From Armatimonadota bacterium (GTDB lineage Bacteria > Armatimonadota > UBA10988): 44,944 bases of DNA. The notes beneath the pieces are model-generated. The model searched no databases. It had not been told where the DNA came from and worked only from the letters and a program-made list of their open reading frames with translations. The position numbers were made by a program, and so were the translations under genes. Location: NCBI GenBank assembly GCA_016235455.1, contig JACRKZ010000135.1, positions 1-44,944 on the forward strand, read 5' to 3'. Of the stretch, positions 12,497-43,400 are shown piece after piece (the first letter of the stretch is position 1; each line of letters begins with the position of its first letter).

Positions 12497-14851
12497 CTAC
12501 GGCGCGGCTTGGCCCTTGCTCGGCACGCGCGCTGCCAGCGACTTGCCCTCGGCGCTGACCCAAGGCCCGCCGAACCGCCCGCGCTGCGCCGCCGCGGGCA
12601 CCAGCCGCGCATCGGCGAAGCTACCACCGGCAGGGATCTCCGTCTCGACGAACATGCCGTCGGCGGCCATGGCCAGCGTGGCCTGCTCGGGGTGCGGCGC
12701 GATGCTGCCATCGGCGTTCACGGTGAAACGCCAGGTGCGCACGGGCCGCTGCTGGTGCAGGTACTGCACCTCCCAGCGGCCGGGATGATCCTCGAGCACG
12801 ACATAGCCTGGCGCCTTCTCGGCACCCCAGGTCACCGGCAGGCGTGAACTGAGCCGGCAGAAGCGCAGTTCCTCGAAGTAGGACCCGGCGCCGCCACGCG
12901 GGTCGGGCTTGGCCCACGAACTGTGCGTCACCACCGCGTTGGCCTCGACGCCGGTGCGCACCTTGTCGTCGGTCAGCGTCAGGCGCTGGCCGTCCACGCT
13001 GATGCGGCAGTAGCCCTCGTTGGCCAGATGCCAGCCCGCGTCGGTCGGCGACAGGTGCCAGACGATGTTCAGCGCGTTGTCGCGCGAGGTGTTGGGCGCG
13101 AAGTCGTAGGCGGGGTCACGGCCGTCGATCTTGAGCAGCGCGCTCGACAGCGCATCGGCGTGATGGTCCAGATAGTAGTGCTCGGCATCGGCCTGCGGCG
13201 TGTTGCGGCTGCCGCGCACGCGGGTGACCTTGCCCACCACGATGTGCTGCACGGCCACCTGGGACTCCGCGCCAGCCGCCGACCGATGGTACAGCTCGAC
13301 CTCGACCGGTCCGGTCGCCGTGAACAGCGTCGGGTTGATCGGCGGGAAGGTGACCGCCAGGCCGCGCTGGCTCCGCTCGGCGCTGGCCAGGAACCCGCCC
13401 AGCTCCTTGCCCGGCACGGTGAGCCGCACGCGGAAGGTGTCGCGCGGGCCGACATCGCCCAGGACCCGCGCCGATCCGTGCAGGCTCCAGCCCTTGGCAT
13501 ACGGCTTGCCGTCGCGTGTGTCCTCGTGCGTCTTGACCTCCAGCCACAGGCCCGCGGCATCCAGCCGAGGCGCGGCCGTCGGCGTCGGCGCGGCGCCAGC
13601 GGGCCCCGCGGCAGTGGTCACCGTCGCGGCCGGCCCACCGACGCCGGCGGCCGTGTTGCGATCAGGCACTCGCGCCGCGGAAGCCTGCATGTCGGGCGTG
13701 GTCCAGGCGCGGCCATAGAACGCGCCGCGCTTGGCCTCGTCGGGCGAGAGTCGCGCATCGAGAATCGACCCGCCACCGGGGATGACCGTCTCGCACAGCG
13801 TCGCGTCGGGACAGAAGTTGGCCGGCGCCAACTGCAGGCCGGCGGCTTCCTCGGGATGCTGGGCGATGTGGCCGTCAGGCTGGACGCGGAAGCGCCACGT
13901 GCGCAGCACATTGGTGCCCTGCACCCAGGTCACTTCCCACGCGCCGGGATGGTCGTCGATCGCGGTCCAGTCGGCGCGCCGGCCGCGGTCGCCGTCCTTG
14001 CCCCAGGTCAACGGCAACACCACGTAGTACTGCCGGCTGGCGAAGGCGGTGCGGTCCAAGGGGCCGGTCTTCGACGCGGGCACGCTGGTCGCCTCGGCGC
14101 GCTCCTGTCGGTCACTGGTGAACCCGCCGACCACCTCGTCGTGCGCCAGCCGCAGCGGCTGGCCGTCCACGGTGACCACGGCATGGCTCATGTGCGCTGG
14201 ATTGTCGAACAGCTCGGGCGCATGGGTGAACAGCACTTCGACCACATTGTGGTCGTAGCGCTGGCTGTTGTCCCACACATAGGACGGATCGCGCGGCCAG
14301 CGGCGATGGATGATGCTGGCCAGCACCTCGCCGCCGCGCGCCAGGTAATAGACCGGCGCATCGGGCGACGGATTGGACCCCGAGCCCGAGAAGCGCGCCA
14401 CCCGGCGCACATCCAGCGTGTAGGTGCGTAGCAACGTCTCCTCGTCGGTGTCGCCATTGATCAGGTAGACCTTGACCGGCACCAGCCCCACGGCGGGAAT
14501 GACCACGTCAGTGTTGCGCAGCCCGACAATGACCAGGCAGGCGTTCTTGCCGTTGGCGTCAGGATAGACCTGGCCCTGGAACTGGTACACGCCAACCTTG
14601 CCGCCCGGCGGCTCAACGACGACCTTGAAGGCACTGCGGTTGGGGATGGGCCCCCAGGCCCGCAGGTTGCTGAGCAGCGACCAGCCGTCGCTGACCGGCT
14701 GGCCGCCGCGCACCGCGCGATGGCTGGTCAGCGAGAACCAGGTGTAGCCGTCGTCGAGATAGACGCCGTCGCCGGCCTGCGCGGACGCCCCGCCGGCGGC
14801 CCCCAACAGCGCGCAGCAGACCCAGACCAGCCCGCACAGTCGCCCCAACAT
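12497..14851 (-). CDS. Secreted hypothetical protein built from two tandem copies of a ~350-aa domain
   Basis: Start ATG 14851 (GGAGGG RBS, signal peptide ending ASA-QA). The two halves align clearly and are joined by an Ala/Pro/Thr linker. Confidence 0.75.
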   Translation of the reverse strand: MLGRLCGLVWVCCALLGAAGGASAQAGDGVYLDDGYTWFSLTSHRAVRGGQPVSDGWSLLSNLRAWGPIPNRSAFKVVVEPPGGKVGVYQFQGQVYPDANGKNACLVIVGLRNTDVVIPAVGLVPVKVYLINGDTDEETLLRTYTLDVRRVARFSGSGSNPSPDAPVYYLARGGEVLASIIHRRWPRDPSYVWDNSQRYDHNVVEVLFTHAPELFDNPAHMSHAVVTVDGQPLRLAHDEVVGGFTSDRQERAEATSVPASKTGPLDRTAFASRQYYVVLPLTWGKDGDRGRRADWTAIDDHPGAWEVTWVQGTNVLRTWRFRVQPDGHIAQHPEEAAGLQLAPANFCPDATLCETVIPGGGSILDARLSPDEAKRGAFYGRAWTTPDMQASAARVPDRNTAAGVGGPAATVTTAAGPAGAAPTPTAAPRLDAAGLWLEVKTHEDTRDGKPYAKGWSLHGSARVLGDVGPRDTFRVRLTVPGKELGGFLASAERSQRGLAVTFPPINPTLFTATGPVEVELYHRSAAGAESQVAVQHIVVGKVTRVRGSRNTPQADAEHYYLDHHADALSSALLKIDGRDPAYDFAPNTSRDNALNIVWHLSPTDAGWHLANEGYCRISVDGQRLTLTDDKVRTGVEANAVVTHSSWAKPDPRGGAGSYFEELRFCRLSSRLPVTWGAEKAPGYVVLEDHPGRWEVQYLHQQRPVRTWRFTVNADGSIAPHPEQATLAMAADGMFVETEIPAGGSFADARLVPAAAQRGRFGGPWVSAEGKSLAARVPSKGQAAP

Positions 14852-14942
14852 TCGTGGTCCCTCCTCGGCACGCAGGCCTTGGCCGGCCTGCGATGCATCG
14901 TTATGGGACCCGCGGATGCTTTTGTCCGCGACACAATCGGGG

Positions 14943-16499
14943 CTACGGCGCGTCGGCGGGCTCGGCCAGGAGCGCCGCGATGTGATCGCCAAACAGCTTC
15001 TCGCCGCCGGCGCCTTCCCAGTTCAGTTCGCCATACCACCAACTGCGCACATATCCGGCCTTGTCGATCAGGTAGACCGATGGCCAGGTGTGGTTGGCCC
15101 AGGCATCCCAGTTGGCCTTGTCGTTGTCCACGGCCACCAGGTAGTCCACCTTCTGCTCGTCCAGGCCCTTGCGCACGTTGGCCTGGTCGCGCTCACCCTC
15201 GGTCTCGGGAGTATGGATGCCCAGCACAACGACGTCCTTGCCCACAAAGCGCTGGCGCCAGCCGAGGACCGGCGGCTGGTTGTGCACGCAGTTCACGCAG
15301 CCCACGGTGAAGAACTGCACCACCACCACCTTGCCGCGCAGCGCGGCCAGCGTGGTGGCCTCGCCATTGAGCCAATTGGTCACGCCGCGCAACTCGGGCG
15401 CCTTGGCGAAGCGCGTGTGGGCGCTGGAGAAGTCGAACGCTTTGCCGCCGAGCCGGCCGTAGGCCAGGTTCTGCTCGGGCCCGAGCAGGGCCAGCAGCCG
15501 ATTGCGCTGGTTGGTCAGGTACTCGGTGACGCGCGCGTCGAGCCCGGCGGAGCCGGCCTCCTTGGCGCGCATGACCCGCTCGCCCTCGCGCGTGGCGGCG
15601 CGCATCTGGCCGATGCGCTTGAGCTGCTCGGCGGTCAGCTTGAGCTGCTCAGCCACGCGCGGCGCCAGCAAGGCGTCGAGCGCGCGCGCCTGCGCGGCGA
15701 TCTGGTCGAGACGAATGCGCTGCTCTGGGCGCAGCACCTGGCGCACGTCGACTTCGACCTGGTCGACCAGCGCCCAGGCTTCGGCCGCCGCATCGGGCTT
15801 GACCAACTGCGTATCGCGCAGCTTCCAGAGCGCGCTGTCGCAGGCGTCGAGCACCTTGGCCACGGCCGCCTGCTGGTCGGCGTCAAGCGCGAGTTCGCGG
15901 AGCACCAACGGCTCGCGTAGCGACAGCAGCAGGCCGTCGGACAACGCGTCGCCGCGCGGCTCGCGGAAGACCTTGTTGATCAGCAGCGCATCGGACAGCC
16001 GCGCGCGGAACTCCTTGATGGGCAGCCGGTCGGCGGCATCGCGCGCCTCGTAGCGGAACATCTCCTCACCAGCGGAATCCAGCGCGATGATCGCCGGATG
16101 CACCGAGGTCTGGCCGCGGTAGCGATAGTCGTCGACCAGGCCGAACTGCTTGGCCACGGCGTAGTCTGCATCGCGGAAGACCAGCCGGCTGGCGACGGCG
16201 CTGAGGCGGTTGGCCCAGTCGTTCAGCACGTCGCCGCTGTCGGCTTTGAGGAAGACATGCGCCACGCCGGGCATGGTCTTGGCCAGGGCCAGGTAGTCAC
16301 GGATCTCGTTGCGGTCCTCGGTGACGTCACCGCGCAGCAGCCAGTGCAGCACCACGACCCGGCCGCGCTGGTGCCCCAGCACAAACGGCGGCCCGCCCAC
16401 CGCCGCGGGCAAGGTGAAGTCGACCGGATTGGCGGCCTGCGCCGAGGTCAGGGCCAAGGCGACGACAGCACAGCAACGAGCCAGCTTAGCCAGGCGCAT
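14943..16499 (-). CDS. Secreted double redoxin protein: Cys-less AhpC/TSA-like domain, helical Spy/CpxP-like region, and TlpA/DipZ-like thioredoxin
   Basis: Start ATG 16499 (GGAG RBS, signal peptide to AQA). C-terminal APEL...WLN...LRGKVVVVQFFTVGCVNC...GIHTPE...VAVDND...WPSVYLIDK...YGE. Middle has LKLTAEQ / LLGPEQ helical repeats. Confidence 0.8.
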   Translation of the reverse strand: MRLAKLARCCAVVALALTSAQAANPVDFTLPAAVGGPPFVLGHQRGRVVVLHWLLRGDVTEDRNEIRDYLALAKTMPGVAHVFLKADSGDVLNDWANRLSAVASRLVFRDADYAVAKQFGLVDDYRYRGQTSVHPAIIALDSAGEEMFRYEARDAADRLPIKEFRARLSDALLINKVFREPRGDALSDGLLLSLREPLVLRELALDADQQAAVAKVLDACDSALWKLRDTQLVKPDAAAEAWALVDQVEVDVRQVLRPEQRIRLDQIAAQARALDALLAPRVAEQLKLTAEQLKRIGQMRAATREGERVMRAKEAGSAGLDARVTEYLTNQRNRLLALLGPEQNLAYGRLGGKAFDFSSAHTRFAKAPELRGVTNWLNGEATTLAALRGKVVVVQFFTVGCVNCVHNQPPVLGWRQRFVGKDVVVLGIHTPETEGERDQANVRKGLDEQKVDYLVAVDNDKANWDAWANHTWPSVYLIDKAGYVRSWWYGELNWEGAGGEKLFGDHIAALLAEPADAP

Positions 16500-16515
16500 C
16501 ACGAGACTCCGCGCT

Positions 16516-16559
16516 TCGGGGCTGGTCGGGCCGCCCGAGGGTGGCACGCCCAGCCCCGA
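16516..16559. repeat. Nested intergenic hairpin (REP-like)
   Basis: Outer arms tcggggctgg (16516-16525) and ccagccccga (16550-16559). Inner arms gccgccc and gggtggc. Confidence 0.45.
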
Positions 16560-16581
16560 TCCGCTCATATCGAGCTACTAC

Positions 16582-20261: not shown

Positions 20262-22319
20262 TCACTTGACCGGCGCCACCACCTTGCCCTCGACCTGCGC
20301 GCGAGCCAGGCGAGACGCCTGGTAGAGCTCGTCCAGCCGCACCACCTTGAAGCGCTCGGGCGGCAGCAGCCGGGCGATCCCCGCGAACCAGGAGGGATCG
20401 CCGGCGTACAGCAGCGTGAACCACGGGCCCTGGACCCCGTCGGTCTCGCGCCGCAGCTTGTCGACGAACTGACCCGGGCTGCCTTCCTCGTAGTAGTGGT
20501 TGCTGTGCACCAACGGCGGGCAGCCTTCTGGGTAGGTCACGCGCTGATCCTTGTGCCACAGAGAGACGCCCTGCAGACCCATGCTCGCCAGCCAACGCAG
20601 GCGCTCGGCCTCCGGATTGAGCGGGTAGAAGTACCACAGGTCGGCAAAGGGCGCGTCGGCCAGCTTGGCGCCATCGCGCGTGCGCTGGGCGAACAGATTG
20701 CGCACGGCGGGCGGCAGGAAGGTCGGCGCCGCGTAACCATAGCCGCTGGGTCCGATGAAGAAGCAGTCGTTGGGTGTGGCCTCGGCGTAGAAGCGCTGCA
20801 TGACCGCGGGGAACCGCTCGCACAGGTATGGCGACATGCCCCAGTTGATGGGCAGCTTGCCGCGATCGGCCTGCAGCCAGCTCCCGCCGTTGTACAGCGA
20901 GCCGGCGCACTTGGCGGTGTCGCCTTCGTTGACCATGAAGGCCACGTAGACCTTGGTCTCGAGCTTCACCTCGGCCGGCGTGATGTGGCGCTGGCGGAAC
21001 GCCGCACGGGCCGGCCGGAGCGCGGCCAGGAACGACAGGTTGGGCACCTGACCGCACTCGACGAACAGGCCGGCGCGCGACACACGGAACAGGTACGACT
21101 GCTCGCTCGGCTTGCCCCAACCCCACACCGGACTCAGCGGCTTGGGGTGCGCGAGGATGCGGTCGAGCTGCTTGGCGCCCGGTGGGTGGAGCCCGCCCGG
21201 CCTCTTCTCCAGCCACTCGCGCACGTAGTCCTCATGGACCGTCTCGGGTAGCGCATGGCTCAGGTCGTAGACGAACAGCCGCTGCGCGACCGCCACATCG
21301 AGGGCAAAGTCGTCGATGGCCTCGCAGTAGGAGTACAGGCCGTCGCGTGAGCAACGGGGCAGCAGGTTGGTCAACGCCCAGTCGTACAGCGGCTCCTTGG
21401 GCGCCTGTGCGCCACCGCTCAGCTCAGCGCGGACGGACCTGACCCAGACGCTCTTGCCGCGCCCGATGATCCACAGGTGCAGGCTGATCTCGCGCTCGCC
21501 CTGCCAGTTGGGCACCGTGCTCAAGTCGAACTCGAAGCGGCCCGTGGCGTCGGTATCGCGTTGGATGACCTCGTCGCCCGCGCCGGGCCGCGAGATCTTC
21601 AACGACCACTGGCCCTCCGCTCGCGGCACCTCGATGACCACTTTGCCGCTGACCGCGTGGAACGGCAATTCGATGCGGCGGGCCGCCGCGGAGTAGGGCT
21701 CGGTGGCGTCGCCCTTCAGGGCGAAGCGCGCCAGATCGCCCTCGCGGGTCACGGTCACCTGACCACCGGCCCACTCGGCGGGGTTAAGGTCGAAAGACTG
21801 CCGCGCCAACTCGGGCTGCCCATGGGCAACAGTGGTGTCGAACACCACCGGCAACGCCGTCAGAGCCGGTACGCTCTGACGCAGCTTGGCGGTCACGGGC
21901 ACGGCATCGAGCAGCCCTGCCTGGGTCACACCGACCTCGAAATCGCCGGGGTAGCCGGGGTCATAGAGCACCGCGCCCTTGACCACGCCGCTCACTTTGC
22001 CGAGCAGCGCCGCCAGGTCGGCCACCGGCTCGAACGTCAGCTTGTGCACGCGCCGGCAGTACGCCATCCAGTCGTCGGCCACCGACCTCATGCTGGCCAG
22101 CGCCGCCGGTAGCGCCTCGCGCTTGGGCATCATGAACGGATTGGACCCGCCCGGCTGCAGGTAGACGTGTGGCCCCTGGCGGTTGGCCAGGCCCTGGATG
22201 GCGGTGGCAGCGACGCGTTCAGCGTGGTCGAGCTTGTCGATGTCGAGGACCCAGACCTGCGCCCGCGCGGCGCTGGTCAGGGCCGCGACGAGGAGCAGAC
22301 TGCAGACGATGGACCGCAT
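20262..22319 (-). CDS. Secreted GxGYxYP-family putative glycoside hydrolase/deacetylase-fold protein with an inserted beta-sandwich
   Basis: Start ATG 22319 (GAGGTG RBS, signal peptide to ARA). Motifs: AIQGLANR, NLSF, YVAFMVNEGD, RGKLPINW, ATPNDCFFIGPSGYGYAAP. Confidence 0.75.
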   Translation of the reverse strand: MRSIVCSLLLVAALTSAARAQVWVLDIDKLDHAERVAATAIQGLANRQGPHVYLQPGGSNPFMMPKREALPAALASMRSVADDWMAYCRRVHKLTFEPVADLAALLGKVSGVVKGAVLYDPGYPGDFEVGVTQAGLLDAVPVTAKLRQSVPALTALPVVFDTTVAHGQPELARQSFDLNPAEWAGGQVTVTREGDLARFALKGDATEPYSAAARRIELPFHAVSGKVVIEVPRAEGQWSLKISRPGAGDEVIQRDTDATGRFEFDLSTVPNWQGEREISLHLWIIGRGKSVWVRSVRAELSGGAQAPKEPLYDWALTNLLPRCSRDGLYSYCEAIDDFALDVAVAQRLFVYDLSHALPETVHEDYVREWLEKRPGGLHPPGAKQLDRILAHPKPLSPVWGWGKPSEQSYLFRVSRAGLFVECGQVPNLSFLAALRPARAAFRQRHITPAEVKLETKVYVAFMVNEGDTAKCAGSLYNGGSWLQADRGKLPINWGMSPYLCERFPAVMQRFYAEATPNDCFFIGPSGYGYAAPTFLPPAVRNLFAQRTRDGAKLADAPFADLWYFYPLNPEAERLRWLASMGLQGVSLWHKDQRVTYPEGCPPLVHSNHYYEEGSPGQFVDKLRRETDGVQGPWFTLLYAGDPSWFAGIARLLPPERFKVVRLDELYQASRLARAQVEGKVVAPVK

Positions 22320-22341
22320 GAGTGAACCCACCTCGCGCGGC

Positions 22342-22347
22342 ATTGTA
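22342..22347 (-). promoter_or_regulatory. -10 box TACAAT for the GxGYxYP gene
   Basis: attgta on the + strand (TACAAT on the - strand), 22 nt upstream of ATG 22319. Confidence 0.45.
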
Positions 22348-22564
22348 GACGATCACCCCGTCAGGCGCGACTCGGCCGTCGGCTGCCACCACCGGTGGCC
22401 CAAAGCATCAGGGCATGTCTGTATCTTTGCCCCAGGAACCGCTCACTCTCGCCGCAGGCCCCCGACGGTGGGGAGCCGCGCGATATAGTGCACTCAAGGC
22501 CCACGCGTTCGTGCGGACCGACAACGCCCGGCGGGTGAGTGATCGATGGGGAGAAGGACCGGCC

Positions 22565-24292
22565 ATGGTTGAGCATTCCGTCAGCGCAGTGATGACGCCC
22601 CCCGGCATCGCCAAATGCCCGACCGGCATCCGTGGGCTCGACCAGATCACCGGTGGCGGTCTGCCGCGCGGCCGGTCGACCCTGGTCTGCGGCAGCGCCG
22701 GCAGTGGCAAGACGCTGCTGGCCATGGAGTTTGTCGTGCGCGGGGTCCGCGAGTTCGGCGAGCCGGGCGTGTTCATGGCCTTTGAGGAGACCCAGCGCGA
22801 GCTGACCGACAATGTCCATTCGCTCGGGTTCGACCTGGCCGATCTGGTCCAGCAGAAGCTGATCGCCATCGACTATGTGCAGGTCGAGCGCAGCGAGATC
22901 GAAGAGACCGGCGAGTACGACCTGGAGGGCCTGTTCCTGCGCCTCAACTACATGATCCAGCAGACCGGCGCCAAGCGCGTGGTGCTGGACTCGCTGGAGG
23001 CACTGTTTGCCGCGCTGCCCAACGAGGCCATTCTGCGCGCGGAGCTGCGGCGGCTGTTCCGCTGGCTCAAGGACCAGGGCGTGACGGCCGTGATCACCGC
23101 CGAACAGGGCGCTCAGACGTTGACGCGCCACGGGCTCGAAGAGTACATCAGCGACTGCGTCATCTTCCTCGACCACCGCGTGACCAACCAGATCGCCACC
23201 CGCCGGCTGCGCGTGGTCAAGTACCGCGGCTCGGCGCACGGCACCAGCGAGTACCCGACCACCATCGACGAGCGCGGTCTGAGCGTGCTGCCGCTCAGCT
23301 CGCTGGGGCTGGCCTACGAGGTCAGCGACGAGCGCGTGCCCAGCGGCGCGGAGCGGCTCGACACGATGCTCGGCGGCAAGGGCTACTTCCGCGGCAGCAG
23401 CATCCTCGTCTCGGGCACCGCCGGCGCGGGCAAGACCAGCCTGGCGGCGGCCTTCGTCGACGCCCAGTGCCGGCGCGGCGAGCGCTGCCTGTACCTGGCG
23501 TTCGAGGAATCACCCCATCAGATCCTGCGCAACATGCGCTCGGTCAGCTACGACCTGGAGCCGTGGGTCAAAGCCGGCCTGTTGCACTTCCACGCCGTGC
23601 GCTCCACTCTGTATGGGCTGGAACAGCACCTGGTGGCCCTCCACAAACTGACCGACGAGTTCCACCCCGCGGCCGTGGTGGTGGATCCGGTCACCAATCT
23701 GTTGAGCATGGGCGTCACCGACGAGGTGAAGGCCATGCTCACGCGGGTCATCGACCACCTCAAGACCCTGGGCGTGACCGCGCTGTTCACCAGCCTGACC
23801 AGCGGCGGTGAGGCCACGGAGCGGACCGAAGTCAACATCTCCTCGCTGATGGACACCTGGGTGCTGCTGCGCAACCTCGAGGCCAGCGGCGAGCGCAACC
23901 GCCTGCTCTATGTGCTCAAGAGCCGCGGCATGGCTCACTCCAATCAGGTGCGCGAGTTCTTGCTGACCAGCGAGGGCATCCAGTTGACCGATGCCTATGT
24001 AGGGCCGGGCGAGGTGCTGGCCGGGTCGGCCCGCCTGCAGCAGATGGCGCGGGACCGGGCCGAGGTGCTCACCGCGCAGCAACGCACGGCACGCCGCCAG
24101 GCCGAGATCGCCGAGCAGCGCCGGCAGGTGCAATCCGAAGTGGATGCGCTGCAGGCCCGAGCGGCGGCGCTGACCGACGAGTTACGGCTGATGGCCGACG
24201 AGGAGCAGTGGCGTTACCAGGCGACGGCCGACACGCGCGCCGCGCTGGAGAGCGCGCGCCAGACCGACGTCAACGGCGAGGTGAAGCCATGA
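22565..24292 (+). CDS. kaiC: Circadian clock protein KaiC homologue (double RecA-like ATPase, KaiC2-like)
   Basis: CI Walker [36 protein letters not shown] Walker [18 protein letters not shown], phosphosite [22 protein letters not shown]. Start placed at ATG 22565. Confidence 0.95.
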
Positions 24293-24624
24293 TGGGCACG
24301 CAGCACGGGCCGGTCGACGACCTGCCCCCGACAGCGGCATCAGGCGAGCATTGGGACCTGCGACTGTATGTGGCGGGCCGGACGGCACGCGCCGTGGCCG
24401 CTCTCGACAACCTCCAGCGGCTGTGCGACGAACGCCTGGCCGGCCGCTACAGCATCGAGGTGATCGACTTGGTGCAGAACCCGCGGCTGGCCGTCGACGA
24501 CCAGATCCTGGCCATTCCCACCTTGGTGCGCAAGCTGCCCGAGCCGATCAAGAAGATCATCGGCGATCTGGCCAACGAAGAGCGACTGCTGGTCGGTCTC
24601 GACCTGCGACCGCGCCGGCCCTGA
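24289..24624 (+). CDS. kaiB: KaiB homologue 1
   Basis: ATGA overlap with the kaiC stop and GAGGTG RBS. Sequence LRLYVAG...[34 protein letters not shown]...GLDL. Confidence 0.93.
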
Positions 24625-24639
24625 GAAGGCAGCCACCCC

Positions 24640-24972
24640 ATGCACGACAATCCATCCGACCCAGATGACTGGCAGGCACCCAGCGGCGCTGCGCGGAACT
24701 ATGTGCTCAAGCTGTACGTGTCGGGCATCACACCGCGCTCCGAGGAGGCCATCCGGTGCGTCACAGCGATCTGCCGCGAGCGATTGGCCGGGCGATATGA
24801 CCTGGAGATCATCGACATCTACCGGCATCCCGCGCTGGCCAGGGATGGCCAGATCGTCGCCGCGCCGACGCTGGTCAAGCAACTGCCGCTGCCTCTGCGC
24901 CGGATGATCGGCAGCATGGCCAACGAGGAACGGCTCCTGGCCGGTCTCGATCTGCGTCCACGAGCCGACTGA
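24640..24972 (+). CDS. kaiB: KaiB homologue 2
   Basis: YVLKLYVSGITPRS...LEIIDIY.HP.LA...QIVAAPTLVKQLPLPLRRMIG...GLDL. Confidence 0.9.
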   Translation: MHDNPSDPDDWQAPSGAARNYVLKLYVSGITPRSEEAIRCVTAICRERLAGRYDLEIIDIYRHPALARDGQIVAAPTLVKQLPLPLRRMIGSMANEERLLAGLDLRPRAD

Positions 24973-25003
24973 ACCAGGGCCGCCGGGCCAAGGAGCTTGT
25001 CTG

Positions 25004-27076
25004 ATGGCCCAAACCGCGAGCGACATACCCGCCAGGGCGGAGTTGCTGGCTGAGAACCTGCGGCTCGCCGCGCGCCTCGATGAGGCCGAGCAGACGCTGG
25101 AGGCCATCCGGACCGGCGATGTGGATGCCTTGCTGGTCAGCGGGCCGCACGGCGAGCAGGTCTTCACGCTCGACGGCGCCGACCGCGTCTACCGCACCAT
25201 CATCGAGACGATGAACGAAGCGGCGCTGACCGTGGATGTCGACGCGACCATCCTCTTCTGCAACCCTCGTTTCGGCGAGCTGATCGGCTCGCCGCTGGCG
25301 GCCATCGTGGGCCAGCCGTTGACCGCGTTCGCCGCGCCGCCGCAGTATGACCCGCTGCGGCGCCTGTTGGCCGACGCGCGGCAGGCACCCGTGCAGCGCC
25401 GACTGACTCTGCGCGCCGCCGATGGCCGCCCCGTGCCCTGCCAGTTCGCCGCCAGCCCGCTGGTCACCGAGACCGGCCCTCAGGTCTGCTTGACCGCCAG
25501 CGACCTGTCGGAGCTGGAGGCCGCGGCCGGTTCGGCCCGCGTCCTGCGCGAACAGCAGCAGGCGCTGGAGGCCAGCCAGGCCACCCTGCGCAGCTTCTAC
25601 GACAGCTCGACGTTCATCATGGGCGTCGCCGAGCTGGCCGGCGACGAACTGCTGGTGGTGCACACCAACGCCGCCACGGCCAGGTTCTTCGACACGACGA
25701 GCCGCGACCTGGCGGGCCGCTCCTTCGCGGCGCCCGAGATCAACGGACCATGGCTCGACCGCTGCCGGCACAGCCAGGTCCGTCGCGAGCCCGTGGAGTT
25801 CGACTATGAGCATCCCACGCGGGCCGGGCCGCGCTGGCTCCACGCGACGGTGGCCTACCTGGGCGACAACGACGCCGGCCGCCCCCTGTTCAGCTACGTG
25901 GCCGAGGATGTCACCGAGCAGATGCGGGCCAAGGAATCGCTGATCCAGCTCAACGAGACGCTCGAGCGTCGGGTGGCCGCGCGCACCGCGGAGGCCGAGG
26001 AGCGGGCACAAGCCCTGCGCCAACTGGCCGGCGAACTGGGCCAGGCCGAGCAGCGCGAGCGCAAGCGCGTGGCCGAGCTGCTCCACGATGGTTTGCAGCA
26101 GGTGCTGATCGCCGCGCAGCTCCAGACCGAGATGCTGCGCCGCCAGCTCACGGACTCGCCGCTGGGGTCCACTGCGGGCCGGCTGGACGACCTGCTCCGG
26201 CAGGCGCTGACCACCTCGCGCGGGCTGACCGCGGAGCTGGCGCCGCCCGCGCTCTACTTCGGCGACCTGCTGGCCGCGTTGCAGTGGCTGGCCCACGCCT
26301 ATCGCGACAACCACGACCTGACCATCGAGCTGACCGTCCCGCCGACCGTCGGCCCCATCGAGGAGTCTGTCAAAGTGCTGCTCTTCCAGGCCGTCCGCGA
26401 GCTGCTGCTCAACGTGGTCAAACACGCCGATGTGACCGCCGCACAGGTCGGCGTGGCCTATCGACCCGACGGGCAGATAGAGGTCAGCGTCGTCGACCGT
26501 GGTCGCGGCTTTGCCCTGTCGCCCGGATGGTCGGCGGGCCAGCCAGGCAGCGGGTTTGGTCTGTTTGGCGTGCGGGAGCGCATCGCCCTGCTGGGCGGCG
26601 AGCTGCGTCTCGACAGCCAGCCCGGCACAGGCACCCGCGCCACCCTCATCGTGCCCGTCGACTCCCCGCTGCCGCGCGAGAGCGCACCCGCGGCCGCGGC
26701 CGACGAGACGACACCGCCGATCCGGGTGCTGCTGGTCGATGACCACCAGGTGGTGCGTGAAGGGCTGGCCGCGGTCCTCTTCGGCCACGACGGCCTGCTC
26801 GTGGTGGGCGAGGCGGCTGATGGCCTGGAAGCCTTCGAGCAGGCCCGCCGGCTGCGGCCCGATGTGGTCGTCATGGATGTCCGGATGCCCCGCATGGACG
26901 GTGTCGAGGCCTGTCGCCTGATCACCCGCGAGCTGCCCGGCACGGTCGTCATTGGCCTGTCGATGTCCGACGACCCGCACACCATCGCCCATATGAAGGA
27001 CGCCGGCGCCACCGAGTTCGTGAGCAAGTCGAACGTGGCGGAGCAGTTGCTGCCGCTGATCCGGCGGTGTGTGTGA
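25004..27076 (+). CDS. Cytoplasmic hybrid histidine kinase: N-terminal coiled segment, two PAS domains, HisKA_3, HATPase, NarL-type receiver
   Basis: PAS segments end in ASDLS and AEDVTEQ. H-box ERKRVAELLHDGLQQ; N-box RELLLNVVKHA; G-boxes DRGRGF, GFGLFGVRER, GTG. Receiver VLLVDDH...DVVVMDVRMP...GA..FVSK. No transmembrane helix seen. AGGAG RBS. Confidence 0.9.
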   Translation: MAQTASDIPARAELLAENLRLAARLDEAEQTLEAIRTGDVDALLVSGPHGEQVFTLDGADRVYRTIIETMNEAALTVDVDATILFCNPRFGELIGSPLAAIVGQPLTAFAAPPQYDPLRRLLADARQAPVQRRLTLRAADGRPVPCQFAASPLVTETGPQVCLTASDLSELEAAAGSARVLREQQQALEASQATLRSFYDSSTFIMGVAELAGDELLVVHTNAATARFFDTTSRDLAGRSFAAPEINGPWLDRCRHSQVRREPVEFDYEHPTRAGPRWLHATVAYLGDNDAGRPLFSYVAEDVTEQMRAKESLIQLNETLERRVAARTAEAEERAQALRQLAGELGQAEQRERKRVAELLHDGLQQVLIAAQLQTEMLRRQLTDSPLGSTAGRLDDLLRQALTTSRGLTAELAPPALYFGDLLAALQWLAHAYRDNHDLTIELTVPPTVGPIEESVKVLLFQAVRELLLNVVKHADVTAAQVGVAYRPDGQIEVSVVDRGRGFALSPGWSAGQPGSGFGLFGVRERIALLGGELRLDSQPGTGTRATLIVPVDSPLPRESAPAAAADETTPPIRVLLVDDHQVVREGLAAVLFGHDGLLVVGEAADGLEAFEQARRLRPDVVVMDVRMPRMDGVEACRLITRELPGTVVIGLSMSDDPHTIAHMKDAGATEFVSKSNVAEQLLPLIRRCV

Positions 27077-27238
27077 GGGCGGGTCGCCTGGCTGACCGCC
27101 GCCCGCTGCCGACGTCGGCACACACCGACCTCACGATGATGCTGGGGCCGGAAGCCCGCCCCGCCAAGGATCCGCGTGCCCAGTGGCGGGCTGGCACTGC
27201 CGCCGTCCTCGGTGCATACTCGGCAAAGGGGTAGTGCC

Positions 27239-28240
27239 ATGGCGCCAGAGGCGTGCGACTGCAGCGCGACCGGTGTTCGACCGCGCACCAGGCCGGGTCG
27301 CTTGGCGATCTCGCTCACTGTGGCGATGCTGAGTAGCCTGGCCGTGTCAGGATGCAGCAACAGCGTTGCCATGTCCGTGACGTACGATGTGTCGAGCGAC
27401 GGCCGACACATTGTATTCACCGGCGGATCGGACGGCGGCAGGCGCCTGTACGACCTTGACCTGACCAACTACCAGGTCACACCGCTCACACGCAGCAAGG
27501 CGGATGAGTCTCACCCCGCCTTCGGGCCGGGCGACGATGGGATTGTCTTCAGCCGCAAGAGGTCTGGCCGTGGCGCGAACCGGGAGATCATCTGGTTCCG
27601 CGTCGCCGATGGCCACGAAGTGCGGCTCACGGACGGCCGGCATCGGGACTTCTATCCGCGTTGCTCAGCCGACGGCGCCGCTGTGGTCTTCATCCGCTAC
27701 CGCGAAGCCGATGAGCGGCCCGACAGAGCGGCCGGTTGGGACGTCTTCCAACTCGATCGGACTACGCTGGCGATCAAGCGCCTGACCGACTGCGTCTATC
27801 TGGACGCTGGATCGACAGGCTTCGTGGGCGACACACGCACCGTCGTCTACGACGCCACGGTCCGCGACAGGCACCACAGCGCTGATCTGTGGCTGGTCGA
27901 CCCAGGCGCCGAACCACGCCGGCTGAGCCGCGACGGCCGCAGCTGGCAGCCCTCGGTCGGCGCTGACGGCCGGCACATCGCCTACTCCAGCGCGGGCGGA
28001 CGCAAGAAACCGCAGATTTGGCTCGCCGCTCTCGCCGACGGCAGAGGCCACCGACTGACCGACGGCCGAAGCGCTCTGGAGCGACCCCGCCTGAACGTCG
28101 CGACGGCACGTATCTACTACCTCAGACGAGAACGACGGGGGCCAGAGCTGTGGCGCATGGCCATGGACGGCACGAGCCCTGAGCGCCTGGCTGGACCAGA
28201 CCTGTTCGTTGCGCCCGAGCGCTGGCGTCCTGGGCGGTAG
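27239..28240 (+). CDS. TolB-like PD40/WD40 beta-propeller lipoprotein
   Basis: Lipobox LAVSG-C. Repeated P-x-x-S-x-D-G-x-x-I-V-F/Y motifs (SSDGRHIVF, PRCSADGAAVVF, PSVGADGRHIAY). The start codon is uncertain. Confidence 0.75.
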   Translation: MAPEACDCSATGVRPRTRPGRLAISLTVAMLSSLAVSGCSNSVAMSVTYDVSSDGRHIVFTGGSDGGRRLYDLDLTNYQVTPLTRSKADESHPAFGPGDDGIVFSRKRSGRGANREIIWFRVADGHEVRLTDGRHRDFYPRCSADGAAVVFIRYREADERPDRAAGWDVFQLDRTTLAIKRLTDCVYLDAGSTGFVGDTRTVVYDATVRDRHHSADLWLVDPGAEPRRLSRDGRSWQPSVGADGRHIAYSSAGGRKKPQIWLAALADGRGHRLTDGRSALERPRLNVATARIYYLRRERRGPELWRMAMDGTSPERLAGPDLFVAPERWRPGR

Positions 28241-28375
28241 CCTAGAGCGCTACACCCTCGGCGGCCACACAAGCACGGCGGCGCCAGCGTCGCCGCTGAG
28301 GCAAAGCCCTGGCGAGCCGGCGGCGCACGGCCCAAAGCCGTGATCCTCAGAGAGCCAGCGCCGCCTCCGCCGACC

Positions 28376-28714
28376 CTACTTCCCCGGCAGCCACTTGCGC
28401 ATCAAGTACTGCTCCACCTGCCGCCGCGCCTCATCCGCCAAGGGCGCGGAGTAGATGAGCACCTCGCCCAGCCGGCCGCCGCCCACGTTGTAGCCGCGGT
28501 CGCGCAGGAAGTTGGAGGCCACCGCGCCGCTCGGCACGATGATCGAGGCCACCCGCGTGCCGGTCGACACGCGAGTGGTCGTGGCGTCGACCTTCTGGCC
28601 GTCCAGGTACAGCGTGCCACGCTGGCCCAGCGTCTGGCCCGACCAGAACCAGATCGCCGGCGGCTTCTCGTAGTCCGCCGGATGGAAGTCGCAGTGCTCC
28701 AGATCGCCGAGCAG
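28376..28714 (-). pseudogene. Out-of-frame C-terminal half of a LamG/concanavalin-like domain belonging to the upstream GH36-like gene
   Basis: Reads LLGD...DFH...LYLDG...GGGRLGEVLIYSAPLADEARRQVEQYLMRKW, a typical ending for this domain. It lies in a different frame from the domain's first half (FWVDA...VQLWKD...VDFGK). Confidence 0.65.
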
Positions 28715-40531: not shown

Positions 40532-40605
40532 CGCGGGGTGGAGCAGTCCGGTAGCTCGGCGGGCTCATAACCCGCAGGTCACAGGTTCGAATCCTGTCCC
40601 CGCTA
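40532..40605 (+). tRNA. tRNA-Met(CAT), initiator (fMet) type
   Basis: Cloverleaf CGCGGGG...CCCCGCT-A with a C1:U72 mismatch. Anticodon stem GCGGG/CCCGC carries three consecutive G-C pairs; loop CTCATAA; T-arm ACAGG TTCGAAT CCTGT. Followed by TCA, not CCA. Confidence 0.96.
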
Positions 40606-40613
40606 TCACAGAG

Positions 40614-40651
40614 ACGGCTCGCAGCGCAAGCTGCGGGCCGTTTTTTCGTTT
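40614..40651 (+). terminator. Rho-independent terminator after the tRNA
   Basis: acggctcgcagc, GCAA loop, gctgcgggccgt, then tttttcgttt. Confidence 0.88.
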
Positions 40652-40708
40652 GGGGCCGATCAACAGGAGCGCGGCGGGCGGCGCCGAATCAGAGCGCCGG
40701 AGATGTCC

Positions 40709-41530
40709 ATGGACCGACCCGCGCGCGTCATGATGATCGGTGCGCACCCCGACGACTGCGATTTCCGCGCCGGCGCGACCTCCGCGCTATGGCGGCAGGC
40801 CGGCATGGCCGTGCTGATGGTCAGCGCCACCAACGGCGACGCCGGCCATCACGAGCAAGGCGGTGGCGCCCTGGCGCGGCGGCGCGCCGCCGAAGCCAAG
40901 GCAGCCGGTGCCGTCATCGACATCGACTACGTGTGCCTGGACTTCCATGACGGCGAGCTGGTGCCTGGCCTGGAGCAGCGCAGAGCCATCATCCGCGCCA
41001 TCCGCGAGTTCGCGCCCGACCTGCTGTTGACCCACCGGCCCGGCGACTACCACGCCGACCATCGCTACACCAGCCAGCTCGTGCAGGACGCGTCGTTCCT
41101 GCTTACGGTACCCAACCTGTGCCCCGATGTGCCAGCCTTATATGACATGCCGGTAATCATGCACTTCGAGGACGGGTTCTCCAAGCCCGAGCCCTTCGCG
41201 CCCGACGTCGTCGTGGGCGTCGACGCGACCATCGGCCTCAAGGGCCGCATGGCCGACTGCCATGTGTCGCAGTTCTATGAGTGGCTGCCCTGGCTGGGCC
41301 GCTACGAGGTGCCCGAGTCGGCGGAAGAGCGACTGGCCTGGTGTGCACAGCGCATGGCCGCCTTGGCCGAGCGCTGCGCGGACCGTTTCCGCGACCGACT
41401 GATCGCGCTGTATGGGCAGACCGCCGGCGCGGCCGTGCGTCACGCCGAGGCCTTCGCCATCACCGAGTATGGCGCGCCACTGACTGACGAGAAGCGAGCG
41501 CTGCTCTTCCCGTTCGTCTCGCGCGACTAG
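40709..41530 (+). CDS. PIG-L/LmbE family N-acetylglucosaminyl deacetylase
   Basis: Motifs: GAHPDD, TNGDAG, RRAAEA, DGEL, THRPGDYHADH, HVSQ, AEAF. ATG 40709 is better spaced from GGAG (40699) than ATG 40703. Confidence 0.88.
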   Translation: MDRPARVMMIGAHPDDCDFRAGATSALWRQAGMAVLMVSATNGDAGHHEQGGGALARRRAAEAKAAGAVIDIDYVCLDFHDGELVPGLEQRRAIIRAIREFAPDLLLTHRPGDYHADHRYTSQLVQDASFLLTVPNLCPDVPALYDMPVIMHFEDGFSKPEPFAPDVVVGVDATIGLKGRMADCHVSQFYEWLPWLGRYEVPESAEERLAWCAQRMAALAERCADRFRDRLIALYGQTAGAAVRHAEAFAITEYGAPLTDEKRALLFPFVSRD

Positions 41531-42409: not shown

Positions 42410-42850
42410 TCACCGGGCGGCGGCACACTCGGGGCACAGCCCGCTGAACTCGAGGACATGGCCGGTGATCGTCCAGCCATCGGCGCCGAGCGGCTCGGTG
42501 AGCGGCTCCACGGCGTGTCCGTCGATCTCGGCGATGCGCCCACAGCCGGCGCAGATGATGGGATGATGGTGGCAACCGTCGACGCGCAGCCGGCTGCAGG
42601 CCACATATCCGTTGACGGTATGAACACGGTGGGCCAGATCCAACGTTTCAAGGAGGTCGAGCACGCGGTACACTGTGACCACGTCGGGCGGCGCGCCGCT
42701 CTCGGTGGCCCGCAGGCGCTCGATGATGGCATAGGGCGAAAGCGCGCGGTCGGCCTGGGCCAAGGCGGCAACGACCACGCGACGGGCGCGCGTCAGGCGA
42801 TAGCCGGCAGCCTTGAGCCGGCCCTCGGCATGGGCGGCAAAGTCATCCAT
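42410..42850 (-). CDS. Fur-family transcriptional regulator (Zur/Fur-like)
   Basis: YRLTRARRVV, DVVTVYRVLDLL, HHHPIICAGCG, GLCPEC (two CxxC motifs). Start ATG 42850. Confidence 0.9.
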   Translation of the reverse strand: MDDFAAHAEGRLKAAGYRLTRARRVVVAALAQADRALSPYAIIERLRATESGAPPDVVTVYRVLDLLETLDLAHRVHTVNGYVACSRLRVDGCHHHPIICAGCGRIAEIDGHAVEPLTEPLGADGWTITGHVLEFSGLCPECAAAR

Positions 42851-42856
42851 AGCGGG

Positions 42857-42862
42857 ATTGTA
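42857..42862 (-). promoter_or_regulatory. -10 box TACAAT for a probably leaderless fur-family transcript
   Basis: Minus strand reads TACAAT-cccgct-ATG (6-nt gap). No Shine-Dalgarno sequence. Confidence 0.55.
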
Positions 42863-42905
42863 AGTGGGCACGGTGGCCGCCGCAAGAGCCGCCAAGGATG
42901 AACCG

Positions 42906-43400
42906 ATGAGACGATGGATTGCCTGGATCGCGGCGTCGCTCTGCGTCCTGAGTCTGTGCGGCTGCAGCGCGCTGGGCCTGATCGACATCATTGACACCGG
43001 CAGCAACGACGGCAACACCGCGGCGATCGTCACCGCGCTGTCGGACAACTGGACGGTCACCAGCTACACGGGCACCGAGACCGGCTCGGTCACCGTGCCC
43101 TCGGCGGCAACCATGCGCTGGCGCTTGCGCACCGACGGCACCTTCGCCGTCACCTCGTCGCTGCCCGTGTCCATCGGCACCGACGCCACGCACACCTACG
43201 ACGAGGCGGGCACCTGGCGGGTGATCAGCGGCGCCACCGGCACGCTCGGTTTCACTTTCAAGCGACTGGACGGCGCCACGGTGGCCACGGCCGACCAGCA
43301 CGAGATGGTGGTCATGTACTCGCGGCCCGACACGCACCAGCTCGTGCTGATCACCGACGGCATCGGGCCGGGCAGCGTGCGCTACGTGCTCTACCGCTGA
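42906..43400 (+). CDS. Lipoprotein with a lipocalin-like beta-barrel
   Basis: MRRWIAWIAASLCVLSLCG-C lipobox. Motifs DNWTVTS, TDGTF, EAGTWRV. AAGGA upstream of ATG 42906. Confidence 0.6.
   Translation: MRRWIAWIAASLCVLSLCGCSALGLIDIIDTGSNDGNTAAIVTALSDNWTVTSYTGTETGSVTVPSAATMRWRLRTDGTFAVTSSLPVSIGTDATHTYDEAGTWRVISGATGTLGFTFKRLDGATVATADQHEMVVMYSRPDTHQLVLITDGIGPGSVRYVLYR

Follow-up and report, generated by a model that had tools for sequence, protein, structure and literature searches.

A KaiA-free kaiC-kaiB-kaiB-kinase cassette of the Rhodobacter sphaeroides type, with two KaiB types and a tagged sensor kinase, in an Armatimonadota genome

In cyanobacteria, the KaiABC system has SasA and CikA as outputs. 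Both are histidine kinases that dock on KaiC or KaiB-KaiC and are regulated by this docking; CikA ends in a receiver-like domain. [quoted passage not shown] For KaiBC of Rhodobacter (Cereibacter) sphaeroides, a mechanism has been described in which a coiled-coil tail replaces KaiA, KaiB accelerates the ATPase and the system is driven by ATP:ADP (Pitsawong et al., 2023, PMC10076222). An operon in which kaiC and kaiB are followed by a PAS/histidine kinase gene has been reported in Rhodopseudomonas palustris (Ma et al., 2016, PMC4794148), and a gene context in which a histidine kinase or GGDEF/EAL gene follows kaiC-kaiB has been described by De Luca et al. (2011, PMC3164672). In addition, variant pockets favouring the fold-switched state have been found across the KaiB tree (Wayment-Steele et al., 2023, PMC10808063).

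The window analyzed here, the whole 44,944-nt stretch of DNA, contains four ORFs on the + strand, lying where an earlier note on this DNA had placed them and encoding KaiC, two KaiBs and a PAS/HisKA_3/HATPase/receiver kinase:

22565..24292, + strand: kaiC, KaiC2 (R. sphaeroides) type, 575 aa (NF006799; PF06745 twice)
24035..24289, + strand: KaiC C-terminal extension, residues ~491-575 (alignment with the 8dba_A tail extends to residue 557)
24289..24624, + strand: kaiB type I, position 1, 111 aa (PF07689, 90.3 bits; type I orthogroup)
24640..24972, + strand: kaiB type II, position 2, 110 aa (PF07689, 77.6 bits; separate old orthogroup)
25004..27076, + strand: hybrid histidine kinase effector, 690 aa (Pfam domains and motif positions)
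25004..25189, + strand: cassette-specific N-terminal element of the kinase, residues 1-62, a helix then AIRTGDVDALLV...QVFTL (conservation)
25190..25513, + strand: PAS domain 1, residues 63-170 (PF13426, PF00989, PF08448)
26057..26254, + strand: HisKA_3 dimerisation/phospho-acceptor domain, residues 352-417 (PF07730, 33.4 bits)
26375..26662, + strand: HATPase_c, residues 458-553 (PF02518, 53.2 bits)
26726..27058, + strand: fused receiver (Response_reg), residues 575-685 (PF00072, 89.3 bits)

The tight, co-oriented packing claimed in that note is borne out by the ORF coordinates. The kaiC stop and the kaiB-1 start overlap as ATGA (start at 24289, within ...GCCATGATGG...), a 15-nt gap containing GAAGG separates the end of kaiB-1 (24624) from kaiB-2 (24640), and a 31-nt gap containing AAGGAG separates the end of kaiB-2 (24972) from the kinase start (25004). 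A Shine-Dalgarno sequence, GGAGAAGGA, lies upstream of kaiC. No promoter or terminator calls support or bound the cassette as an operon, and a hairpin past the kinase stop (z 0.10) is no better than in shuffled sequence. The neighborhood had been read as that of a polysaccharide degrader, and polysaccharide-degradation genes (GH16, LamG, GH116, GH123 and GxGYxYP) are indeed found nearby in the window. The order kaiC, kaiB, PAS signaling protein (kinase or c-di-GMP enzyme) is the one described in PMC4794148 and PMC3164672, where KaiC is likewise ~50 residues longer than the cyanobacterial protein, and a PAS kinase gene also follows in the R. sphaeroides operon as described. The cassette is a genuine four-gene copy of the purple-bacterial KaiA-free "hourglass" module and represents a testable variant of a known system, not a novel one. 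In contrast to R. sphaeroides, the host is not a purple bacterium but a non-phototroph with polysaccharide-degradation genes.

KaiC exceeds the NF006799 cut-off of 408 bits by a wide margin (715 bits), with two PF06745 stretches, and its best PDB match is RsKaiC (8dba_A, 621 bits, residues 14-557 aligned including the tail), compared with ~322 bits for S. elongatus KaiC. Like KaiC-RS of the solved KaiC-RS/KaiB-RS system (8DBA, 8FWI, 8FWJ), it is a double-domain protein, the only such KaiC in the genome, with Walker A motifs at residues 43-50 and 284-291, catalytic EE pairs at 74-75 and 314-315, an SS phospho-site (S426/S427) aligning to Rs S413/S414, and a long C-terminal tail. By alignment, it is assigned to the R. 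sphaeroides type. An alternative start exists at 22592, a database copy of the same protein (566 aa, P0005) beginning nine codons later. The C-terminal extension corresponds to the coiled-coil tail by which two hexamers of RsKaiC are held together, and it may likewise form a coiled coil and support a dodecamer. Among complete KaiC ORFs of related loci, 65 of 76 carry a tail of at least 76 residues past the same point, while 11, including some of the closest relatives, do not, so the tail-based mechanism is not universal in the clade. The earlier view that no mechanism was established for this arrangement is outdated, since the R. sphaeroides mechanism has been published (PMC10076222) and the KaiC studied here aligns to that protein through the tail.

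The label KaiA-less is also supported: a search for the KaiA family (PF07688) had no match at E<=10, either in the window or across the 6.5-Mb assembly; as this genome is 93% complete, kaiA is probably absent from it. R. sphaeroides KaiBC has no KaiA either. The only KaiB-domain matches in the genome are the two cassette kaiBs, and neither Photo_RC nor PHY domains were found in it. Since the host shows neither a phytochrome nor a photosynthetic reaction centre, the cassette more probably reads energy state than daylight.

The conservation of the gene order was assessed on 80 related loci, four of which end at kaiC, leaving 76 with room for further genes. At least two kaiBs are present in 55 of these and one in 21. 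The downstream protein could be assessed in 73 loci, the other three lacking room, and in 70 of them it is a homologous signaling protein starting with a ~60-residue motif: in 68 the ORF matches kinase residues ~1-170, and in two more the motif is followed by GAF in place of PAS. Only L057, L060 and L062 are devoid of it. The second, different KaiB and the sensor kinase with a cassette-specific N-terminal tag thus appear, from this survey, as a widespread form of the module. Compared with R. sphaeroides KaiBC, the cassette differs by a second KaiB from a separate orthogroup and by a HisKA_3-type kinase to which a receiver is fused. In their available text, PMC4794148 and PMC3164672 describe one kaiB and mention neither a second KaiB orthogroup nor a downstream N-terminal motif. 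What the survey adds to the published operon is two KaiB orthogroups, a modeled, low-confidence fold contrast between them and the shared ~60-residue downstream motif.

The kinase has H361 within the H-box LHDGLQQ, an N-box (467-475) and G1 (498-503) and G2 (515-520) boxes. In its receiver, the acidic pocket (D579, D580, D625) is intact and the lysine (K) of FVSKS is present; no output domain follows. Unlike SasA and CikA, this protein is without a KaiB-like N-terminal domain, belongs to the HisKA_3 family and has a receiver that keeps the phospho-acceptor aspartate. Within the N-terminal element, two residues, A34 and D41, show no variation among 48-52 loci, and the element is retained where GAF substitutes for PAS; PAS domain 1 is conserved along with it (tblastn identity of 28-50% to the 68 loci). 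No solved structure matches the positions of the element by sequence. A profile of the N-terminal module scores 216 bits in its own genome and 193, 182 and 82 bits in three of 40 relatives, the first two of these directly following kaiB genes and the third lying at a contig start; elsewhere, scores are at most 66 bits and involve the generic PAS part only. By contrast with this constant module, the output domains of the 68 proteins vary: 55 are kinases (HisKA, with 7 HisKA_3 and 2 HisKA_2), 5 carry GGDEF/EAL or HD-GYP, the kind of output found in KidA, and 8 are PAS-only or cut. HisKA_3 and HATPase_c can accordingly be regarded, at the level of domain composition, as the variable output part of the kinase. 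What had been called a dedicated kinase is dedicated in its N-terminal motif and sensor domain, while the kinase core is interchangeable across loci. As the motif regex has a single match in the whole-genome six-frame translation (25103-25138), the downstream protein is most likely the output, and its N-terminal element is proposed to be a Kai-coupling module.

Our favored interpretation, which we consider reasonably probable, is that of a horizontally spread, KaiA-independent KaiBC signaling module of the KaiC2 (R. sphaeroides) type, in its common four-gene form, with KaiC state reporting energy or elapsed time and the fourth gene as output. By homology with RsKaiC, KaiC would autophosphorylate unaided because its C-terminal tail would take over the role of KaiA, and KaiB bound to the CI ring would speed ATP hydrolysis and drive dephosphorylation as the ATP:ADP ratio drops. 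Through this response to KaiB and ATP:ADP, KaiC state would be a readout of energy status or of the time elapsed, and the system would be an hourglass and not a free-running clock. The reading as an energy sensor, advanced in the earlier note, is in line with the dependence on ATP:ADP that has been published for the nearest relative of solved structure (Pitsawong et al., 2023, PMC10076222). In the fourth protein, the constant part comprises the first ~60 residues and the adjoining sensor domain, the catalytic part being exchangeable. The N-terminal module may dock, like the KidA PAS domains in Synechococcus, either on KaiB in its fold-switched state or on KaiB in complex with KaiC, and this docking would gate autophosphorylation of the HisKA_3 kinase, whose phosphate may pass to its own fused receiver and possibly also to a NarL-type regulator; neither Hpt nor a NarL-type regulator is encoded within the window. 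Control of the kinase by KaiC state via the KaiBs is suggested by synteny, output-domain swapping and the KidA precedent. KidA itself is not encoded beside kaiB and acts within a KaiABC oscillator.

The PAS kinase could instead be an input, its PAS domains sensing redox, oxygen or another ligand and informing KaiBC, as suggested for the R. sphaeroides operon. Ligand binding is common among PAS domains, and a profile comparison places the heme or oxygen sensors DosP and FixL (32-41 bits) nearest among solved PAS cores. Schmelling 2017 and a R. rubrum proteomics paper both cite the idea of a redox input, and the next gene is redox-themed in two of 26 loci, encoding a peroxiredoxin (L016) or a hemerythrin (L050). 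However, the N-terminal module stays constant while the catalytic end may be a kinase, GGDEF/EAL or HD-GYP. The target of an enzyme that produces c-di-GMP or phosphorylates a receiver is the cell and not KaiC, and Kai proteins have neither receiver nor c-di-GMP-binding domains. A pure input role is unlikely, and the two roles are compatible, as PAS could feed a further signal into an output gated by Kai.

The second kaiB bears on another alternative, namely that it is a redundant duplicate, that the system works like the single-KaiB one of R. sphaeroides and that the predicted difference in fold was produced artificially by AlphaFold2. The two KaiBs are both full-length, share core residues and score well above the PF07689 cut-off (27 bits), and a single kaiB suffices in the 21 loci mentioned above (15 type-I-only and 6 type-II-only); since either type can be the sole KaiB next to the module, coupling does not depend on type II. 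The known fold-switch residues do not distinguish the types, G and D of ...GLDL being present in both. Tree placement nevertheless recovered two orthogroups (SH-aLRT 99.9), the 55 position-2 KaiBs forming one clade apart from 54 position-1 rows (SH-aLRT 99-99.9), and the types hold the same gene order across at least 13 phyla, including three archaeal ones. They also differ in conserved residues (W/Y, I/L and R/K, with Y61 and Q62 in addition in type II) and in evolutionary rate (mean distances of 0.37 and 0.66). Because both types persist over so many phyla, a redundant copy kept so long is unlikely, and this alternative appears more doubtful than the preceding one; on phylogenetic grounds, the two KaiBs are assigned to two old orthogroups and are not redundant copies.

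The type I KaiB is closest to RsKaiB (8fwj_M, 104 bits), and the 17 best Foldseek matches of its AlphaFold2 model (pLDDT 60.5) are ground-state KaiBs (TM 0.65-0.72, rmsd ~2.1 Å). For the type II model (pLDDT 52.8, below 50 in the C-terminal half), the 11 best matches are fold-switched, thioredoxin-like KaiBs (TM 0.61-0.70), with Legionella Lpp1115 (4KUN), KaiB-TV4 (8UBH) and KaiC-bound KaiB as best superpositions, and ground-state entries fit with an rmsd of ~7 Å. A ground-state type I and a fold-switched type II are only hinted at, because both models are of low confidence. The local-alignment AlphaFold2 approach was validated on KaiB (PMC10808063), while the reliability of predictions from clustered alignments is described as under debate (10.1101/2024.07.29.605333); the available text of PMC10808063 does not tie fold-switched variants to the second position of kaiC-kaiB-kaiB operons.

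It is very improbable that the cassette serves as an ATPase system for general stress responses, as reported for Legionella KaiBC, and plays no part in timing or energy sensing. In favor of this view, no phototrophy genes were seen in the host, the KaiC2 type is patchily distributed (two of 40 relatives), Schmelling 2017 cites a stress role of Legionella KaiC2 and the crystal structure of Legionella KaiB (4kun) is similar to the type II model (TM 0.70). Against it, none of the catalytic and phospho-site features of the RsKaiC hourglass is missing from KaiC, which aligns far better to RsKaiC than to other KaiCs, and a stress phenotype and energy-state sensing are mutually compatible. As for the receiver, 21 of the 68 downstream proteins of related loci have one fused to them, and among the 26 next ORFs tested, 7 encode it as a gene of its own.

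The cassette at 22565..27076 is formed by four plus-strand open reading frames, whose coordinates proved to be exactly those claimed in an earlier note made from the sequence alone:

22565-24292, + strand: kaiC, 575 aa, with GGAGAAGGA upstream
24289-24624, + strand: kaiB-1, 111 aa, sharing a 4-base ATGA overlap with kaiC, with GAGGTG upstream
24640-24972, + strand: kaiB-2, 110 aa, after a 15-nt gap to kaiB-1 containing GAAGG
25004-27076, + strand: hybrid kinase, 690 aa, after a 31-nt gap to kaiB-2 containing AAGGAG

All four cassette genes score well over the Pfam or NCBIfam cut-offs, and they show the same-strand order and short gaps by which the non-cyanobacterial kaiC-kaiB-PAS/HK operon is recognized. 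In a database copy, KaiC begins nine codons further downstream than in the frame considered here. [quoted passage not shown] Thus neither the base system nor the order of its genes is new. No description of a second, tandem or duplicated kaiB, or of a kaiC-kaiB-kaiB operon, was found in the literature searched; subscription journals and supplementary figures (S1 Fig of Ma et al., 2016; Fig. S6 of De Luca et al., 2011) may show such arrangements. The cassette thus genuinely belongs to a known system, of which it is an intact copy in a widespread four-gene form. Two features have no counterpart in the literature searched, namely a second orthogroup of KaiB, predicted to rest in a different fold, and a motif-tagged, exchangeable effector; they represent a testable variant of the system, not a new kind. 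The window alone adds little beyond a HisKA_3-plus-receiver output and a non-phototrophic host. The models studied outside cyanobacteria (R. sphaeroides, R. palustris and Legionella) have each one KaiB and an uncharacterised kinase, and the comparative picture (two KaiB orthogroups with different predicted resting folds, a motif of ~60 residues occurring once in this genome, and swappable outputs) bears on how such systems may convey the Kai state to the cell.

In KaiC, PF06745 matches twice, in line with two RecA-like domains in tandem. Walker A motifs occupy residues 43-50 (GSAGSGKT) and 284-291 (GTAGAGKT), and the catalytic glutamate pairs are at 74-75 and 314-315. Its phosphorylation site is Ser-Ser rather than Ser-Thr, S426/S427 in NISSLMD being aligned with LSSLMD of R. 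sphaeroides KaiC (KaiC-RS, 8dba_A; S413/S414). The alignment with KaiC-RS scores 621 bits over residues 14-557, long C-terminal tail included, versus ~322 bits for the cyanobacterial KaiCs. By sequence, the C-terminal extension comprises 85 residues, and its alignment with the 8dba_A tail reaches residue 557. The nearest database KaiCs are ~70% identical, the named ones originating from Phycisphaerales or Planctomycetes bins. [quoted passage not shown] Among the related loci (best 80 of 260), 11 of the 76 complete KaiC frames stop near the window-equivalent residue 480-509 and are devoid of the ~80-100-residue coiled-coil segment (loci L007, L008, L013, L015, L016, L020, L022, L024, L027, L047 and L078), so tail-based regulation is not universal in this KaiC clade. 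This tail-less set takes in the three KaiCs most similar to that of the window (71-75% identity; best 80 of 260) and three loci with a HisKA_3 output.

The assembly (6.5 Mb in 185 contigs, 93% complete, the window being one entire contig) contains a single double-domain KaiC, the cassette copy, and KaiB matches in the two cassette genes only. The KaiA profile (PF07688) gave no match at E<=10 in this 93%-complete assembly while the S. elongatus control scored above the cut-off, which supports the KaiA-less label proposed in the earlier note. Hence, in contrast to the cyanobacterial KaiABC oscillator, this genome has no detectable KaiA. It also differs by lacking a kinase that, like SasA, has a KaiB-like domain at its N-terminus, the two kaiB genes accounting for all KaiB-domain matches; the search for sasA elsewhere in the genome, suggested by the same note, was thus negative at the level of the KaiB domain. 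The KaiA3-KaiB3-KaiC3 system relies on KaiA3, which combines a NarL-type receiver with a KaiA-like C-terminus and is encoded directly upstream of kaiB (PMC11372060). The present cassette differs from it in that nothing lies between kaiC and kaiB and that a divergent GxGYxYP gene is found upstream of kaiC.

The conservation of gene order, the survey of which had been proposed, was assessed on the best 80 of 260 confirmed loci retrieved with the window KaiC; these span many phyla, are skewed to close relatives of this KaiC, and were read by tblastn with the four window proteins. Downstream of kaiC, two kaiBs were found in 54 loci, three in one and a single kaiB in 21, while in four loci the sequence stops no more than 61 nt after kaiC (best 80 of 260). 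The two-kaiB form extends over at least 13 phyla, including Methanobacteriota, Thermoplasmatota and Bathyarchaeota, and cultured carriers among the related loci include Methylotetracoccus oryzae, Larkinella, Nibrella, Mucilaginibacter calamicampi and Methanoculleus. In 68 of the 76 loci with room for it (best 80 of 260), the next frame is 28-50% identical to the window kinase over residues ~1-170 of the latter, which means that the order kaiC-kaiB-PAS protein is kept in these 68 loci. Among the other eight, less than 270 nt remain in three (L047, L053 and L073), two encode kinases which start with the N-terminal motif and carry a GAF domain in place of the PAS domain (L027 and L033), and in three the module is absent downstream (L057, L060 and L062). 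The GAF variants, located after a single type I kaiB (L027:7765-9654, L033:8075-9919 and L030:8006-9907), keep the sequence AEETLRAIxEGEADALVI..GExVYTLKS, which suggests that the constant element is formed by the first ~55 residues and not by the PAS core.

The catalytic ends of these proteins are more diverse. Pfam analysis of the 68 downstream proteins (best 80 of 260 loci) assigned 55 of them to kinases, mostly HisKA with seven HisKA_3 and two HisKA_2, and five to c-di-GMP enzymes (GGDEF-EAL in L040, L043 and L049, GGDEF in L072 and HD-GYP in L071); the other eight have PAS domains only, are split or run into a contig end. A fused receiver is present in 21 of the 68, and the combination of HisKA_3 with a fused receiver, as in the window, was found again in L016 and L024. 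Among 26 frames tested immediately after the cassette, six encode stand-alone receivers and one a receiver-GerE regulator, the latter in L078, directly after a HisKA_3 kinase. Two others of these 26 positions are occupied by a peroxiredoxin gene (L016:11164-11859) and a hemerythrin gene (L050:5641-6210), too few cases to be interpreted.

The window kinase itself is composed of PAS (residues 63-170), HisKA_3 (352-417; PF07730, 33.4 bits for a cut-off of 24), HATPase_c (458-553; PF02518, 53.2 bits) and receiver (575-685) domains. The H-box with H361, the N, G1 and G2 boxes and the acidic pocket of the receiver are intact. No GerE domain of a receiver-GerE (LuxR-type) regulator was found in the 19 neighbouring ORFs scanned, and the genome contains three Hpt domains, each within a large ORF on another contig. 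Ahead of the PAS domain, the N-terminal module (residues ~1-60 of the kinase) follows the consensus of a helix, then ...AEETLxAIRxGEVDALVV..G..VYTLxGA..YR, then the sensor domain, with A34, D41, R64 and N87 invariant. When a profile of this module was searched in the host genome and 40 relatives, it scored 216 bits in the host and 193, 182 and 82 bits in three relatives (G032, G035 and G039), the remaining relatives reaching at most 66 bits through the generic PAS part only. The matches in G032 and G035 directly follow kaiB genes; G039 has a partial match after kaiC-kaiB at a contig end, and its 82-bit match lies at a contig start with the flank cut off. Among the genomes searched, high-scoring module matches adjoin kai genes only, the 82-bit match of G039 being placed at that contig start. 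When the whole genome was translated in six frames, a regular expression of the motif matched once, at 25103-25138; it also matched in 60 of 80 loci (best 80 of 260). A profile search of the PDB with the module returned generic PAS cores only, from profile position ~54, and no solved match for the first ~55 positions; in the ESM Atlas, residues 1-180 found nothing beyond generic PAS clusters. Against 1.84 billion representatives, the module profile gave 285,029 matches at E<=0.001 and 10,334 at E<=1e-30, scores which are inflated by multi-PAS proteins and do not represent a family size. A constant N-terminal module joined to exchangeable catalytic ends argues that the Kai proteins have the downstream protein as their output, with the module as a candidate coupling point.

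KaiB-1 and KaiB-2 are both recognized by PF07689 (90.3 and 77.6 bits, cut-off 27) and fall below the NCBIfam equivalog cut-off, which is based on cyanobacterial KaiB (92 and 86 versus 110 bits). KaiB-1 is nearest to R. sphaeroides KaiB (KaiB-RS, 8fwj_M, 104 bits), and KaiB-2 is about equally close to cyanobacterial KaiBs (82 bits) and KaiB-RS (79 bits). In a quick-search tree of 134 rows and 100 columns (loci from the best 80 of 260), one branch (SH-aLRT 99) has on its type II side all 55 position-2 KaiBs, including that of the window, six single KaiBs, the third KaiB of L035 and one position-1 row, L034. The latter had been extended past its stop codon during extraction and is type I by its residues; without it, the 55 position-2 and 54 position-1 rows separate at SH-aLRT 99.9. 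Placing both KaiBs on a family tree, another check put forward by the earlier note, thus resolved them into two orthogroups. Type I is the more conserved (mean column identity 57% versus 50%, mean distance 0.37 versus 0.66). The types are told apart by W/Y, I/L and R/K and, in type II, also by Y61 and Q62; KaiB-RS has type I residues at three such positions (A, R, KII). Three successive kaiBs were observed before a PAS kinase in L035 (7749-8757; two of type I and one of type II) and in L088 (G035:C151, 3233-4373; a divergent copy, type I and type II).

Structural models point to a further distinction. Following the AF-Cluster logic, which has been validated on KaiB (Wayment-Steele et al., 2023, PMC10808063), AlphaFold2 was run on each KaiB using the 48-row alignment of its own orthogroup. 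The type I model (pLDDT 60.5) has the order β-α-β-α-α-α-β, and its 17 best Foldseek matches are ground-state KaiB crystals (TM 0.65-0.72, rmsd ~2.1 Å over 82-93 columns); against fold-switched entries, its N-terminal half alone matches. The type II model (pLDDT 52.8, with the C-terminal half below 50) has the order β-α-β-α-β-α; its 11 best matches are fold-switched or KaiC-bound KaiBs and the Legionella KaiB (TM 0.61-0.70), while its rmsd to ground-state entries is ~7 Å. These models, of low confidence, hint that type I and type II may rest in different folds, ground-state and fold-switched, respectively. Single-type loci beside the module include 15 with type I only and six with type II only (best 80 of 260). 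Since either type can stand alone beside the module, type II is not essential for coupling. Mirror-tree distances between KaiC, KaiB-I, KaiB-II and the module correlate with r of 0.46-0.67, and the partial correlations with the module given KaiC are 0.39 (type I) and 0.24 (type II); these values are confounded by shared descent and consistent with co-inheritance.

Based on its homologue, the KaiC autokinase would be KaiA-independent, and its dephosphorylation would depend on the ATP:ADP ratio and be aided by KaiB. An experimental precedent for the output step is KidA from S. elongatus, which carries GGDEF and EAL domains behind N-terminal PAS domains and uses the latter to bind fold-switched KaiB (PMC9478674). 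Considering this precedent and the genomic context, the N-terminal module may dock on fold-switched KaiB or on the KaiB-KaiC complex, and docking would gate the kinase. The fused receiver might serve as a sink, a relay or a docking domain, and the PAS domain might contribute a ligand signal. A more speculative proposal, which we regard as rather unlikely, is that type II KaiB naturally rests in the fold-switched state and permanently occupies the KaiC CI ring as an adaptor or competitor, either holding the effector motif at KaiC or displacing it once the slow-switching type I arrives. The three Kai proteins would then constitute a KaiA-free delay circuit, read out by whichever enzyme is fused behind the motif, and in a non-phototrophic host this circuit would measure the duration of low energy charge and not the time of day. 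If true, this would give Kai systems outside cyanobacteria a general output route of modular design.

The distribution of the cassette is patchy. Of 40 relatives, two were found to carry KaiC2-type genes (at least 57% identity), with none in a same-genus genome (80% complete) nor in four same-family genomes, one of those relatives having a KaiC of another type (38% identical). In a tree of 81 KaiCs, the window falls within a set of 16 rows (SH-aLRT 99) mixing Planctomycetota, Verrucomicrobiota, Pseudomonadota, Kiritimatiellota and others, and the number of kaiBs changes at least 11 times. This pattern fits a cassette which spread horizontally and repeatedly lost one kaiB. The flanking GxGYxYP and PD40 proteins, used as queries, had no match in the five nearest relatives. 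Regarding light input, domain searches of the genome found neither a photosynthetic reaction centre nor a phytochrome PHY domain; the rhodopsin search gave no match, its control likewise remaining without match.

At the level of transcription, no RNA run was listed as containing 22400-27200. DNA runs containing this interval belong to a study labelled groundwater metagenome (shares 0.87-0.97), which may be the source of the assembly itself, and to one labelled freshwater metagenome (0.30-0.39); smaller shares (0.09-0.15) were disregarded. A scan of 22000-28600 found no promoter-like site and one terminator-like site, inside kaiB and on the wrong strand, and the hairpin past the kinase stop is not distinct from shuffled sequence (z 0.10). 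The neighbours of the cassette, in a window of ~69% G+C, include GH16, LamG, GH116, GH123 and GxGYxYP genes, which bears out the earlier impression of a polysaccharide degrader, along with an RNase D-like gene, an MCP gene and a Fur-family gene. The Fur-family frame (42413-43063, - strand, 217 aa) has its Fur domain at residues 86-206 only and may have an over-extended start or an N-terminal extension. A 543-residue frame (14946-16574, - strand) matches AhpC/TSA/Redoxin in its C-terminal ~120 residues only, its N-terminal ~390 residues having no family match. A tRNA-Met (CAT) gene (40532-40605, + strand) overlaps the start of the stop-to-stop frame of a PIG-L family gene (40571-41527), whose real start therefore lies further downstream. 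Four frames with high third-position GC and no Pfam match at E<=1e-5 are found among the glycoside-hydrolase genes:

12500-15022, - strand: ORF of 841 aa
28434-30953, - strand: ORF of 840 aa
41537-42409, - strand: ORF of 291 aa
43394-44626, - strand: ORF of 411 aa
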